Source: a virus. From it: a stretch of DNA of 64,000 nucleotides. A program made the position numbers and the translations under genes. How positions within the stretch are numbered: the stretch's first letter is position 1; each line of letters starts with the position of its first letter. The notes under the pieces are model-generated. The model was not told the DNA's origin, searched no databases, and saw nothing but the letters and a program-made list of their open reading frames with translations. The DNA is taken from the IMG/VR virus record IMGVR_UViG_3300027659_000014, positions 42,181-106,180 of that record, one strand, 5' to 3'. This document shows, piece after piece, positions 19,769-30,435 of the stretch.

Positions 19769-21379
19769 ATGAGTTGTAGTACAGATATTTGTGTTGTTAA
19801 TTCCGGAATATATAATGATAATTATACATTCAGTGGTCAATATGGTGGTATAGATTATTTTGAAAATTCAACCTCATCATATTACATTTTTTATTCTCAA
19901 ACAGAATTAAGGTGGTGTTTATCGTCATACATAGGGGATCCGTGTATTTTATTTGGTCCAACAAATTCCGTTGATCCATGTCCTGATTTTTATTCTGGAA
20001 TAATAGTTAACGGTTTATGTCCAACCCCAACTCCTACCCCAACATTAGCTTGTGCTATTGATTTTGACGCAATGTTTGATTGTGATGTATTTGTAACTCC
20101 AACTCCAACTCCAACTAAAACAAAAACCCCAACACCAACACCAACACCAACAGTAACTAATGTTTGTGGGGGTGTTTCTTTATCTGTTACAGGAAACACA
20201 TATTCACCAACACCAACTACAACACCAACTTTAACTCCAACACCTTCAATTCCAATTGATAGACCATGTAATTTTGATGGTATTGCCAAATTTAATAGTG
20301 TTGATGGGTTTATTGTATGTGCAACCAGTAAAAAATTTGAGGATTGTTTTACTGGTATAGAATACTATACAACACAAACATTATTTGATTCTTTAGGTAA
20401 TTTATTAGTTGTTGGTGACGTTTATGGTGGAACAATAAACAGAATATCTTCATGTTTTATTTTTCAAACAATTGTAGATAACATAAGTGGTGGTGACAAA
20501 GTTGTTATTACCACAGAATATGGACCTTCTAGTCAAGGTAGTTGTTTAAATTGTTTCCCAATTAGTAATACTCCTACATTAACACCTACTATAACACCAA
20601 CCCCAACAACACCTTGTTTATGTTTGTCATATAGAATTTCAAATATAACTGGAAATCCCAACAGTGGTGGTATAGAATTTATGAGTTGTGATAATAAAGA
20701 TGTTTTATTAAGACCTGGTTCTATGGGTTGGGATGATTGGTTAAATCATGTTCTAATTATTTGTTCTAAAGATATACCGACACTTAATTCAGGATCTGCA
20801 ACTATTACAAATATTGGTGATTGTTGTAATGGAAATTGTATTCAATACTTATTATTTAATACATCCACAACAGTTCAATCATATGTTTATACAAATTTAT
20901 TAGGTGTTGTTATAAACCAAACATTAAATTCTAACACAAGTATTTTAATTAATTCATTTTCAACACCATATTCTATATATGGTGGAATAAATGTAAACCC
21001 CACAGGAAGAGATTGTTTTTCAACACCGGGATTGACTCCTACCCCAACTAATACACCAACAAAAACTCCAACGCCAACTCCAACGCCAGCTAATCTTCCT
21101 TATATAAGTAGTCTTTATTTTCCTATGAATACCGGTATTATGGTAAATATCTGCATAAATATTAATAACGATGGTGGAAGCCCAATAACACAATGTGGTG
21201 TGGTTTACAATACAACAGGAAACCCAACAACAGCAGATAATATAATTCCATATAATATTCAAATAGGGATTCAATGTCAGAATTTTATTAGACCAATACT
21301 AAACCAACCATATTATTTTAGTGCGTTTGCTACAAATTCTGTAGGAACATTTTATCGTATTTACCCAAATCCAGTATAG
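19769..21379 (+). CDS. Cys-rich putative virion surface protein with five (TP)n linkers and a C-terminal FN3-like domain
   Basis: TP tracts separate Cys-rich modules; DGGSPITQCGVVY...YYFSAFATNSVGT resembles the FN3 variant of Bacteroidota surface proteins. Confidence 0.75.
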   Translation: MSCSTDICVVNSGIYNDNYTFSGQYGGIDYFENSTSSYYIFYSQTELRWCLSSYIGDPCILFGPTNSVDPCPDFYSGIIVNGLCPTPTPTPTLACAIDFDAMFDCDVFVTPTPTPTKTKTPTPTPTPTVTNVCGGVSLSVTGNTYSPTPTTTPTLTPTPSIPIDRPCNFDGIAKFNSVDGFIVCATSKKFEDCFTGIEYYTTQTLFDSLGNLLVVGDVYGGTINRISSCFIFQTIVDNISGGDKVVITTEYGPSSQGSCLNCFPISNTPTLTPTITPTPTTPCLCLSYRISNITGNPNSGGIEFMSCDNKDVLLRPGSMGWDDWLNHVLIICSKDIPTLNSGSATITNIGDCCNGNCIQYLLFNTSTTVQSYVYTNLLGVVINQTLNSNTSILINSFSTPYSIYGGINVNPTGRDCFSTPGLTPTPTNTPTKTPTPTPTPANLPYISSLYFPMNTGIMVNICININNDGGSPITQCGVVYNTTGNPTTADNIIPYNIQIGIQCQNFIRPILNQPYYFSAFATNSVGTFYRIYPNPV

Positions 21380-21444
21380 CGGTATTACTAAATTATTTAG
21401 TCCTTCAACAGTTTTATGTGTATTTGTAATTAAAAATATAAGAC

Positions 21445-21477
21445 AAAAAAAAATATCACCTAAAAAGACGATATTTT
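21445..21477 (-). terminator. Intrinsic terminator after the ruvC-like gene
   Basis: AATATCGTCT-TTTT-AGGTGATATT followed by a T run (minus strand, with G-U pairs). Confidence 0.6.
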
Positions 21478-21501
21478 CAATTATCGGTTATTTAGACGAT
21501 A

Positions 21502-27827: not shown

Positions 27828-27833
27828 ATAACT

Positions 27834-27861
27834 AAAATATGGTATATGTGTAATAAGTCAA
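27834..27861 (-). promoter_or_regulatory. Putative -35/-10 promoter for the glycosyltransferase
   Basis: TTGACT-N16-TATTTT. Confidence 0.35.
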
Positions 27862-27888
27862 TATTGTTAATTAATATAAAAACTTATA

Positions 27889-30435
27889 TTACGAATTACA
27901 TCCATATGTTGCCATACAACTATTACAAGTTGTACCAACAGGTAATAATGTACCAACAAATGATGGTGTCCCATTAAATGTATTAACTACTCGATAACAT
28001 TGTCCACCAACTAAAACTATTTGATTAATTACTGCGGATGGTAGTATTACAAACTTTTGAATCAAAGGGTCACAACAAGATACCGCAACATAAACAACTC
28101 CTGGAGTTCTTGTTGGAGTTGGACTTGGGGTTGCTTTTGGTGTTGAAGTTAATGTTTGAGTAGGTGTAGGAGTAGGTGGTGGATTTGTTGAAGTTGGTGT
28201 TTGAGTAGGAGTAGGAGTTGGTGGTGGATTTGTTGACGTTGGTGTTGGTGTTGGTGTAGGAGTAACAACATCACATTCAACACAAGAAATATCATAATTT
28301 ATTATTAAATTAATTATAACTTTTGCATCAGATAATGTATTAAATTTAGTTGGTACACAACTTTTATTAATATCTTTACAATCATTCACAATTGTTATTT
28401 TGTTTTTAACAATATCTATATCAACTTCACCAATATCCGGATAAGTTAATAACATTAATTTTATTACATTAATCCATTCAATATCTGTTGGATAATCATA
28501 AATTCCTATTGAGTTATAAAAAAGAAATTGTTTTATTACACCATTTACACTTGTTTCAATAATAAATTCAGCACCATTAATTACGCACCCTAAATCATTG
28601 TATGTTAAATCAAAAAATCCCTCATTATACATTTGACCTATCCCTCTTCTACCATCAATTCCAGTATTAACAAAATTAGTGTCACTTATATTATAAACTT
28701 GATAATTCCCTAAAAGTGTGGTCCCCGATAAAAGAATTGTTTTACTATATGTACATCCAGAACTATCAACAACTTGTAATGTGTATGTTCCTGCACTTAA
28801 ATTAGTTACTGTTGCTCCAGTTTGTGAGTTTACATTTGAACTCCAATTGTAAGTAAATGGTGGGTAACCACTACTCAAAAGAGTAGTTATTTGACCATCA
28901 TTCCCATTAACAGGTTGTGTTGATAATAAATTAAAGAATACAGAATTTGATGGTCCAACATATGCTGTTGTTATTTGTGAACAACCATTTGCGTCGGTAA
29001 CCGTAACATTATAAGACCCAAAAGGTAAATTATTATAAAAATTAATTGGAGATATTGCGTATCCAGTAATTTGATAAGTATATGGTAATGTACCCCCACT
29101 AGTTGTTAATATCTGTAAGGTACCATTATTTAATCCACATGTGGTATTAGTTGTAACCGCAGTTATTGTAAACAAATTAACATTTGTAACTGTTGTTGTT
29201 CCAGTATAAACACATCCTGAATTATTATCAATCAAAATTGTATATGTGTCTGATTGTAAATTATTAAAAGTTGTGTTAGTACCAACAGTTGTTGTATTAA
29301 CCGTATTTCCGGAAGAATTCAGTAACGTATAGGTAAATGTTCCCGTAGGGGATCCAGTATTAACAACTATTGTTATTGACCCATTATTACCACAATTAGA
29401 ATTTGTTGTGTTAATTGATGAAATAGTAAATCCATTGGGTGTTGTTAACGAAGTTGATTGAGTATCACTACATAATCCAGCATCTTTAACAGTAACGGTT
29501 AAAATTCCTGAAGGTAAATTTTGAAATGTATATGTGTTTGAAAATGTAACTATTGTATCCCCATTAGACCCTGAAAAAAAGAATGGAGCTGTCCCACCAG
29601 TAACGGTAACTTCAACCACACCATCACTATTAAAACAAGTACTTCCTGTTGTTAAAAAAGAAGATATTCCAATTGGTGGAACATTATTAACAGAAACACT
29701 ATTAGGAACAACACATCCTGTAGAATCTGTTACGGTAACAGTATAATACCCAACTGTTAATCCAGTTGCCGTAGACCCTGTTTGTCCATCATTCCAAACA
29801 TATGTATAAGGAGCAACCCCTGTTTGTCCAGTAACAAATATTTTTCCTGAACCAAAAGCAACATTACAACTTGCATCGTCAACAACATAAAACCCATAAG
29901 AAAAAGTTGTTGATGGTAAAATTGGTACGCTCGCACTTACCCCATTACATCCTGCACCATCATCACCAACAATATAATAAGTTCCTCCCGATAAATTTGA
30001 AAAGGTTATTCCACTAGTTGGAGTTGACCCACTATTTATATACCCGTTTGTTGTTTCATAAAGCAATGCAGATCCAAACCCATAAAAAGGATTAAACCCA
30101 AATGTTATTTCTCCATTATCATTACCACAAGTTGTATTTATTACATTTTCAACACTTATAGATGTTCCCGATGATATTGGTATGTTTAAGTATATTGGAT
30201 CAAAGGGTGGATTTATACACGAGTCTTGGATTGCCAAACTATATGTACCGGCAGACATACCACTAAAATAATAAGTTGTTGTGGATGCTGATGTTGGTAA
30301 TAAACCTGTTGAGGAAATTTCATATACAGTGTAGGGTGAAGTACCACCAGTTATCTCAATGTAAATTTCTCCAACATTAGTATTAGTACAATCACCAGAG
30401 ATATAAAGATTATATATTATTTGTCCACAACTCAT
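27889..30435 (-). CDS. SprB-repeat putative virion adhesin/fibre with a long (TP)n stalk and Cys-rich tip
   Basis: About seven TTCGxxNGxI...GGTxPYTY...L.xGxYxVTVTDxxGC units; ~55-aa T/P tract; C-terminal CC...C...CxxC...C module. Confidence 0.8.
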   Translation of the reverse strand: MSCGQIIYNLYISGDCTNTNVGEIYIEITGGTSPYTVYEISSTGLLPTSASTTTYYFSGMSAGTYSLAIQDSCINPPFDPIYLNIPISSGTSISVENVINTTCGNDNGEITFGFNPFYGFGSALLYETTNGYINSGSTPTSGITFSNLSGGTYYIVGDDGAGCNGVSASVPILPSTTFSYGFYVVDDASCNVAFGSGKIFVTGQTGVAPYTYVWNDGQTGSTATGLTVGYYTVTVTDSTGCVVPNSVSVNNVPPIGISSFLTTGSTCFNSDGVVEVTVTGGTAPFFFSGSNGDTIVTFSNTYTFQNLPSGILTVTVKDAGLCSDTQSTSLTTPNGFTISSINTTNSNCGNNGSITIVVNTGSPTGTFTYTLLNSSGNTVNTTTVGTNTTFNNLQSDTYTILIDNNSGCVYTGTTTVTNVNLFTITAVTTNTTCGLNNGTLQILTTSGGTLPYTYQITGYAISPINFYNNLPFGSYNVTVTDANGCSQITTAYVGPSNSVFFNLLSTQPVNGNDGQITTLLSSGYPPFTYNWSSNVNSQTGATVTNLSAGTYTLQVVDSSGCTYSKTILLSGTTLLGNYQVYNISDTNFVNTGIDGRRGIGQMYNEGFFDLTYNDLGCVINGAEFIIETSVNGVIKQFLFYNSIGIYDYPTDIEWINVIKLMLLTYPDIGEVDIDIVKNKITIVNDCKDINKSCVPTKFNTLSDAKVIINLIINYDISCVECDVVTPTPTPTPTSTNPPPTPTPTQTPTSTNPPPTPTPTQTLTSTPKATPSPTPTRTPGVVYVAVSCCDPLIQKFVILPSAVINQIVLVGGQCYRVVNTFNGTPSFVGTLLPVGTTCNSCMATYGCNS

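Follow-up and report, generated by a model that had tools for sequence, protein, structure and literature searches.

A predicted glycosyltransferase family associated with Thr-rich tracts of structural proteins: a candidate virion O-glycosylation system of tailed phages

We analysed a 64,000-nucleotide stretch of phage DNA (hereafter the window), which comprises the last 64 kb of the 106,180-bp IMG/VR record IMGVR_UViG_3300027659_000014 and in which a single predicted glycosyltransferase gene is surrounded by genes encoding Cys-rich proteins with linkers composed of threonine and proline (T/P tracts; Table 1). Since CheckV rates the completeness of the record at 36%, the whole genome is expected to be approximately 300 kb in size; its G+C content is about 28%. 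All five open reading frames (ORFs) named in the original prediction for this locus are present. The block of four genes for Cys-rich proteins that it described also exists, but is not uninterrupted, being split by a gene for a RuvC-like resolvase (21502-22110). The gene of the 848-amino-acid (aa) protein lies directly upstream of the enzyme gene and that of the 687-aa protein directly downstream, in a position whose orthologous gene is highly variable among relatives. The SprB repeats recognized by Pfam in both proteins support their earlier description as adhesin-like and point to a Bacteroidota-type host. The 536-, 855-, 687- and 848-aa proteins contain 26 (4.9%), 21 (2.5%), 25 (3.6%) and 25 (2.9%) Cys residues, respectively, compared with 1.8% in the enzyme.

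Table 1. Features of the glycosyltransferase locus and its surroundings (positions in the window)
Feature	Position	Strand	Basis
Glycosyltransferase, 326 aa	26847-27827	-	phrog_4417; AF2 model; fold matches; remote relation to PF23452
848-aa Cys-rich protein, six SprB repeats	27889-30435	-	SprB E 6e-22; phrog_26672 'virion structural protein' E 4e-6
(TP)n / NPPPTPTPTQTPTST linker region, predicted acceptor tract	28102-28269 (aa 723-778 of the 848-aa protein)	-	Tract count
687-aa Cys-rich SprB-repeat protein	24755-26818	-	Pfam SprB E 1.6e-9
855-aa protein	22164-24731	-	Kept across the clade, 57-95% identity
536-aa Cys-rich protein, opposite strand to the enzyme	19769-21379	+	C-terminal match to phrog_13374
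Conserved 1005-aa protein without T/P tracts	30432-33449	-	Upstream, same gene string; context only
Baseplate wedge subunit	43953-45791	-	phrog_219 E 2.9e-23; same minus-strand gene string

The 326-aa protein matches phrog_4417, a family annotated as of 'unknown function' (E 5e-66; residues 6-319 against positions 3-290 of the 293-position profile), and neither single-sequence nor profile searches gave a match to any Pfam family (E<=1), NCBIfam model or PDB sequence. The family is large, with 1187 proteins at E<=0.001 in 90% clusters and 820 representatives at 50% identity. Homologues, all less than 40% identical to the query, occur in 77 cultured phage genomes, mostly those of Lactobacillus, Enterococcus, Staphylococcus, Lactococcus and Clostridium phages, together with Chryseobacterium phage MA9V-3. 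Pattern scans of IMG/VR with queries from three clades recovered at least 595, at least 332 and at least 283 stretches encoding relatives; one scan made with a distant family member gave no match.

The DxD motif (HDAD) noted earlier is indeed present: its residues D103 and D105, and likewise H267, are invariant in 52 relatives (28-85% identity) and nearly invariant in 150. In the AF2 model (pLDDT 97.3, pTM 0.94) the protein forms a single Rossmann-like alpha/beta/alpha domain, as in GT-A glycosyltransferases, with the first strand starting at residue 5 and no membrane segment. A Foldseek search of the PDB gave 295 matches at E<=0.001, and the top ones listed are glycosyltransferases, led by UGGT, WbbM, glycogenin, LARGE1 and GT6. 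An independent all-against-all structure aligner, VIA, ranked the folds in the order glycogenin (Z 15.1), Skp1 glucoside alpha-galactosyltransferase (6mw8; Z 14.8), LgtC (Z 14.1), UGGT (Z 14.0), WbbM (Z 13.7), GlyE of the serine-rich-repeat adhesin pathway (5gvv; Z 13.4) and the PBCV-1 capsid glycosyltransferase (2p6w; Z 11.1). The best solved folds are mostly protein glycosyltransferases and, taken overall, are neither DNA- or lipopolysaccharide-modifying enzymes nor proteins of another fold. The nearest predicted viral structures are unnamed phage proteins, followed by GT8-like enzymes of giant viruses. Judging from the model, the protein is probably a soluble, metal-dependent GT-A glycosyltransferase of a GT8-like, probably retaining type. 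Membership of GT8 itself (PF01501) was rejected by sequence (no Pfam match at E<=1), as the likeness is one of fold alone, at 7-12% identity.

More than half of the 150 best representatives of the family are longer than 400 aa. Where Pfam recognizes the extra domains of the long relatives, these are GT7C, PF11397 GlcNAc-transferase, GT6, GT2, GT29, O-FucT, GT25 or GT1. Such repeated fusion to other glycosyltransferase domains is as expected for an enzyme of a multi-step glycan pathway.

To count T/P tracts, we scored every 10-residue segment with T+P >=8 and T >=3. By this rule there are seven tracts in the 536-aa protein, four in the 855-aa protein, none in the 687-aa protein and four in the 848-aa protein, against 0.02-0.07 tracts per protein after shuffling of residues. 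The (TP)n tracts of the 536-aa protein lie at aa 83-154, 268-282 and 422-441, and the 687-aa protein contains two weaker poly-Thr runs (TITTTT and VTTTTTF) at aa 217-239. Across the record (54 window ORFs that do not overlap and are 80 aa or longer, plus the ORFs of the other 42 kb) the tracts are confined to the genes flanking the enzyme gene, so that the T/P and poly-Thr linkers to which the original prediction drew attention are found in no other ORF of the 106 kb.

The 855-aa protein contains a (TP)n linker block at aa 187-231 (nucleotides 24039-24173) and NPI(V/I)TTTTTL repeats at aa 636-680 (nucleotides 22692-22826). In its 31 orthologues the globular parts are well conserved and both linker regions are free in length, with (TP)n and TTTTT(T) exchanged at the same linker positions. 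Thr is therefore the element common to these linkers, which fits a Thr acceptor better than a hydroxyproline (Hyp) one. Several orthologues also carry insertions of 40-60 residues in the linker regions; these include motifs like ...CI(I/L)MTELxEFLxTEDGDFLVWxDC... and look like a small module placed between T/P tracts. The AF2 model of the 855-aa protein was uninformative (pLDDT 47) and too poor for a structure search.

The association of the enzyme with Thr-rich tracts extends well beyond the window. In three phage clades, neighbouring genes with such tracts were found in 68-88% of loci, compared with 2-5% of distant ORFs. The clade of the window phage was represented by 79 IMG/VR loci (enzyme identity 58-100%) with the gene order ~390 aa, 302 aa, 1005 aa, variable gene, enzyme, variable gene, ~840 aa, resolvase, opposite-strand gene. 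Tracts are carried by the product of the first gene after the enzyme in 54/79 loci, of the second in 53/73 and of the fourth, the position of the 536-aa protein, in 38/66, as against 19/360 ORFs located more than four genes away. The two other clades were collected with queries approximately 36-37% identical to the window enzyme, their members being 43-100% identical to their own queries. Here it is the gene directly upstream that encodes a poly-Thr/Ser tract, in 63 of 79 and 69 of 78 loci (distant ORFs: 24/530 and 5/275). In these clades, as in phages of Firmicutes, the associated tracts are pure poly-Thr/Ser and contain no Pro. Moreover, the single-domain copies of the enzyme in bacterial genomes (<=360 aa, in prophage-like contexts) lie downstream of a gene encoding a Thr tract in 19 of 28 cases, the tract frequently forming the C-terminus of its product. 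The enzyme and Thr-rich structural genes thus show strong co-occurrence, which recurs in independent lineages.

Cultured phages reveal which proteins carry the tracts. In Enterococcus phage phiFL1A poly-Thr forms the C-terminus of two proteins, gp45 (major head) and gp50 (major tail), and the enzyme gp51 is encoded directly after gp50. The major head and major tail proteins of Lacticaseibacillus phage R3.3 end in ...TTTTT(T)SHA, with the enzyme gene following the head gene, and the major tail protein of Staphylococcus phage SA2, encoded beside the enzyme gene, has the C-terminus DDSTTTTTTTTP. Chryseobacterium phage MA9V-3 has long poly-Thr/Ser linkers in the products of both genes preceding the enzyme gene. 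Phage O-glycosylation of virions calls for a phage glycosyltransferase and dedicated acceptor tracts on virion proteins; this combination is found here, the carriers being major head and tail proteins. In SA2 (MH356730.1) we also noticed an annotated 88-aa ORF (positions 5661-5924 of the retrieved locus), which is read in a different frame from the major tail gene, overlaps the latter at its 3' end and codes for some 60 poly-Thr/Ser residues; one possibility is a long, mucin-like extension of the tail tube protein made by frameshifting.

A further link between tract and enzyme comes from the tail-tube protein of phiFL1A and its close relatives (27 loci, 64-100% identity), for which the presence of the enzyme gene was scored by hmmsearch with the family profile. 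All 12 loci with a poly-Thr tail (approximately 15-25 residues) have the enzyme gene immediately downstream, and all 15 without a tail lack it, although no less than 2.7 kb of sequence follows in each of them; there were no discordant cases. A maximum-likelihood tree of the tail-tube cores requires four joint changes of state, at least two of which are forced by well-supported branches. It is hard to explain why so short a tail should be gained or lost together with the enzyme, unless the tail is the substrate or partner of the latter. Among the R3.3-like capsid loci, 36 have both features, one has neither, two at contig ends could not be judged, and one (IMGVR_UViG_2728369672_000003) has a frameshifted tract and a truncated enzyme ORF. 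In this last locus the poly-Thr run lies in another frame and the tail reads ...PPHPLWHRLPLLPLRTLN, which is explained either by decay of the module or by an error in sequencing the homopolymeric run of ACC.

The original prediction had described the enzyme as 'plant-type', because of motifs shared in the same order with Hyp O-arabinosyltransferase (HPAT; GT95, Pfam PF23452), and had suggested the same motif order for peptidyl-Ser galactosyltransferase SERGT1 (GT96). We found that six motifs are collinear with those of PF23452 proteins (in general form WQ, Y..(N/S)..P...WL, DxD, W..(D/E)M, I.H and (F/W).K..Y): PYFHWQ of the phage protein corresponds to PYxxWQ of PF23452, YIPSIKPYLISRWL to YxxYNRLxSLxEWL, HDADIIF to LDPDxVF, FWTAEMW to WESDM, ILHMAG to IIHYC and FYKGEY to LWxKxxY. 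Bacterial genomes encoding enzyme homologues were searched with PF23452. From the resulting gene 83 bacterial relatives were collected, PF23452 being listed for the majority in the precomputed Pfam column, and 26 of the 83 were aligned. Comparison of the phage family with these 26 bacterial proteins by hhalign gave a probability of 85.3% and E 5.9e-6 over 260 columns, i.e. the whole catalytic domain, and comparison with single PF23452 proteins gave E 4e-5 and 7e-5. In a protein-language-model Atlas, 18 of the 30 named nearest clusters carry PF23452 in 10-58% of their members, followed by DUF7164, an observation that we take as a lead only.

Nevertheless, the phage proteins do not belong to GT95. 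The Pfam HPAT model matches neither the protein, nor anything in the whole record, nor the four phage records with homologues, and just one of the 52 relatives gives a match, at E 0.09. In two Acidimicrobiia genomes PF23452 does score above the cut-off, but in a different, neighbouring gene and not in the enzyme homologue. GT95 membership was therefore rejected and remote homology retained: from sequence comparison, the phage family is best regarded as a remote, superfamily-level sister of PF23452 and not as a member. The term 'plant-type' holds as far as the resemblance to HPAT is concerned, but is too narrow, given the many bacterial members of PF23452 and a score of the phage protein below the Pfam threshold. 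Plant HPAT1-3 act on Hyp and have a type II membrane anchor, whereas the phage enzyme is predicted to be soluble, and no prolyl hydroxylase partner was seen in the 106 kb; the acceptor peptides of both (in the case of the phage, the proposed one) are rich in Pro, Ser or Thr.

Several cellular relatives of the enzyme have gene contexts connected with peptides. In Chitinophaga niastensis DSM 24859 a 587-aa homologue (the enzyme domain fused to GT7C; positions 1084-8824 of the retrieved locus cover the cluster) is flanked on one side by genes for a C39-peptidase ABC exporter and HlyD and on the other by a LanC-like gene, and the product of an upstream ORF (203 aa) has a leader of the double-glycine type (...EKIFGG). 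The locus may be a cluster for a glycosylated bacteriocin or another ribosomally synthesized and post-translationally modified peptide (RiPP). Gene sizes around the fused homologue are alike in many Bacteroidota loci, the Pfam scan having covered the C. niastensis locus only. An Acidimicrobiales metagenome-assembled genome (JBDQKM010000005.1) encodes a 1013-aa fusion of a phrog_4417-like glycosyltransferase, an F5/8 type C domain and a PF11397 GlcNAc-transferase. Beside the fusion (positions 3155-10025 of the retrieved locus) are genes for an NAD epimerase and a 2-oxoglutarate (2OG)-Fe(II) oxygenase (PF13640), with a separate PF23452 gene approximately 4 kb away upstream, and the cluster looks like a bacterial pathway of Hyp glycosylation. 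In addition, several bacterial PF23452 proteins carry a fused PqqD domain (PF05402), which in RiPP pathways serves to recognize the peptide. Contexts of this kind would fit a wider superfamily of enzymes acting on peptides and proteins.

Taking into account the fold, the catalytic motifs, the remote homology to HPAT, the fusions to other glycosyltransferase domains, and the co-occurrence and joint gain and loss in independent lineages, all of them established by computation, we consider it quite probable that the enzyme O-glycosylates Thr residues in the phage's own virion proteins. The fold, the homology to HPAT and the co-occurrence in particular lend computational support to the original proposal that the phage glycosylates the T/P linkers of its own fibres. 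The enzyme would act in the cytoplasm, before or during virion assembly, taking a sugar from a host nucleotide sugar and transferring it to the hydroxyl group of Thr in the (TP)n and poly-Thr linkers of the fibre- or adhesin-like proteins encoded on either side. The outcome would be a virion with mucin-like, glycosylated linkers, whose possible benefit could be linker extension combined with protease resistance, shielding, or adhesion. We infer the Thr of the tracts as the acceptor and the flanking proteins of the window as virion components, as we do the nature of the sugar and of the benefit.

More generally, it seems likely that phrog_4417 enzymes and Thr-rich tracts together constitute a widespread two-part virion O-glycosylation system of tailed phages, composed of a portable poly-Thr or (TP)n 'tag' and a soluble, HPAT-related transferase, and distributed from small temperate phages to phages of approximately 300 kb. 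Its proposed range would include capsid and tail-tube tags in the small temperate phages that infect Enterococcus, Lactobacillaceae, Staphylococcus and Clostridium, as well as internal fibre linkers in ~300-kb freshwater phages of Bacteroidota-type hosts.

Several points weigh against Thr glycosylation of virion proteins. Support for the family members is computational throughout, and the virion status of the flanking proteins of the window is indicated indirectly, by the SprB repeats, one weak PHROG match and the location of their genes in a string of baseplate and fibre genes. Phage fibres in general often contain T/P-rich linkers, and adjacency within a clade could partly reflect shared location; in the clade of the window phage it could be inherited synteny. 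The fold ranking includes, as close matches, LgtC and WbbM, which build a glycolipid (lipooligosaccharide) and a polysaccharide (O-antigen), respectively. The long fused copies of the enzyme found in Bacteroidota chromosomes have Thr tracts nearby in only 3 of 46 cases, and the fold is therefore not bound to poly-Thr acceptors. Finally, no nucleotide-sugar enzymes (epimerase and NTP-transferase families) were found in the 106-kb record, i.e. in 36% of the genome.

The homology to a family whose plant members act on Hyp suggests an alternative, in which the flanking virion proteins are glycosylated at Hyp, or at sites elsewhere than the T/P linkers, the latter serving as plain flexible spacers. 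The linkers of the window are indeed Pro-rich, but the poly-Thr/Ser tracts of the other clades and of Firmicutes phages are free of Pro, and in the orthologues of the 855-aa protein (TP)n and TTTTT interchange with Thr as the common residue. The Acidimicrobiales cluster does pair a family member with a 2OG-Fe(II) oxygenase, the type of enzyme that the original prediction had considered as a prolyl hydroxylase. However, no PF13640 match was obtained in the 106-kb record (36% of the genome, the other 64% lying outside it). Since no sign of a prolyl hydroxylase was seen in these 106 kb and the tracts of other clades are devoid of Pro, Thr is the likely acceptor, rather than Hyp. In the tail-tube comparison, moreover, the poly-Thr tail is the sole difference linked to the enzyme gene, which argues against other sites. 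We therefore regard this alternative as unlikely.

Very unlikely, in our opinion, is a non-protein acceptor (hypermodified bases of phage DNA, or a glycan or lipid of the host envelope), with the place of the gene among Thr-rich genes being incidental. According to an excerpt of PMC12619734, phage GT-A enzymes are best known for DNA glucosylation and serotype conversion, and the record encodes a thymidylate-synthase-family protein and two DNA methylases. In small temperate siphophages, however, the gene belongs to the late structural operon and immediately follows the gene for the major tail or major head protein, and a DNA or envelope target would leave the joint gain and loss with the tail unexplained (12/12 versus 0/15, with at least two independent events). 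The close folds of LgtC and WbbM and the fused cellular homologues without nearby Thr tracts would also fit such a target, but the model contains no membrane segment, and peptides are the targets of PF23452, the family nearest in sequence, as well as of the gene contexts in cells. As for an inactive glycosyltransferase-fold protein with a structural or assembly role (lectin-like, or a chaperone for Thr-rich proteins) and no sugar transfer, the location in structural operons and an activity that is so far predicted only would allow for it, but it is most improbable in the light of the (near-)invariant DxD, C-terminal His and several aromatic and acidic positions across 28-85% identity, which fit a conserved active site, and of the repeated fusion to other catalytic glycosyltransferase domains.

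To our knowledge, virion glycosylation has been shown experimentally for actinobacteriophages only, in which it is reported to alter antibody recognition of the particles. As cited in PMC12619734 and PMC13313380, the mycobacteriophages Che8, Corndog and Myrna have glycosylated virions (Freeman et al. 2023, Cell Host Microbe 31:1216), and phage-encoded glycosyltransferases are reported to modify C-terminal extensions of the capsid and tail-tube subunits. The poly-Thr-tailed head and tail proteins encoded beside the enzyme in Enterococcus, Lacticaseibacillus and Staphylococcus phages follow the same logic. In contrast to the mycobacteriophages, we are dealing here with a Bacteroidota-type jumbo phage and with phages of Firmicutes, the enzyme gene is located within the structural/fibre operon, and the acceptor tracts are homopolymeric Thr or (TP)n. 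The carriers in the window are, furthermore, internal linkers of fibre-like proteins and not tails of capsid or tube proteins. The principle would therefore be the same as in actinophage virion glycosylation, but with a different enzyme family, a different type of acceptor tract and different hosts.

The proposed enzyme also resembles retaining protein glycosyltransferases of families GT8 and GT24 (glycogenin, 6mw8, UGGT and 5gvv), with Z 13.4-15.1 over 210-244 aligned residues and the same pattern of DxD and C-terminal His. These enzymes act on protein acceptors in the cytoplasm or lumen, as we propose for the phage enzyme, and GlyE, which decorates a pneumococcal Ser-rich repeat adhesin, offers a close functional analogy. 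They differ in sequence: identity is 7-12%, there is no match to Pfam GT8, and the phage family has motifs of its own, common to PF23452. A64R of chlorovirus PBCV-1 (2p6w) is likewise a virus-encoded cytoplasmic GT-A enzyme, which glycosylates the virus's own major capsid protein, but it belongs to a virus of a eukaryote and its fold match (Z 11.1) is weaker than those of GT8. The glycans of PBCV-1 are atypical N-linked ones.

Full-text literature searches turned up no publication dealing with this enzyme family, with poly-Thr tags on phage proteins or with HPAT-like enzymes of phages, in agreement with the earlier impression that the pairing of enzyme and substrate had gone unreported in tailed phages. 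Judging from the genomes compared here, this pairing is widespread in tailed phages and not peculiar to the phage of the window.

If our interpretation is correct, glycosylated virions are common and many phage particles bear mucin-like glycan coats. Carriers of the gene include Enterococcus, Staphylococcus and lactic-acid-bacteria phages, which makes the question relevant to phage therapy and dairy fermentation. A function would be assigned to a large 'unknown' PHROG (phrog_4417), and a simple sequence rule (poly-Thr tag plus enzyme gene) would predict glycosylated virion proteins. The compact pair of enzyme and tag would also be a candidate tool for glyco-engineering. In evolutionary terms, the plant HPAT family would have bacterial and phage relatives that apparently act on peptides.

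Turning to the wider setting of the locus, three genes whose order is conserved (390, 302 and 1005 aa) come before the variable cassette of fibre and enzyme genes; the last of their products, the 1005-aa protein, gave no family match. The baseplate wedge gene belongs to the same minus-strand gene string, which places the cassette in the tail/baseplate module. Cultured phages yielded no match, either to a 12-kb block of the locus by megablast or to the 855-aa and 1005-aa proteins by tblastn, and a promoter and terminator scan performed no better than shuffled sequences.

The gene content is that of a large, myovirus-like phage, with a baseplate wedge subunit, ribonucleotide reductase, DnaB-like helicase, UvsX-like recombinase, gp32-like single-stranded-DNA-binding protein, SbcCD-like nuclease and primase. 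The 106-kb record also encodes Hsp70, a DnaJ-type protein, two thioredoxin-fold proteins and two sigma-70-type factors; the thioredoxins and chaperones may be linked to the folding of the Cys-rich fibre proteins. A second glycosyltransferase gene, of the GT2 family (PF00535, E 2.3e-18), is located outside the window at positions 3-713 (minus strand) of the record, where it is truncated by the record end, and its product might be a candidate glycan-extending enzyme.

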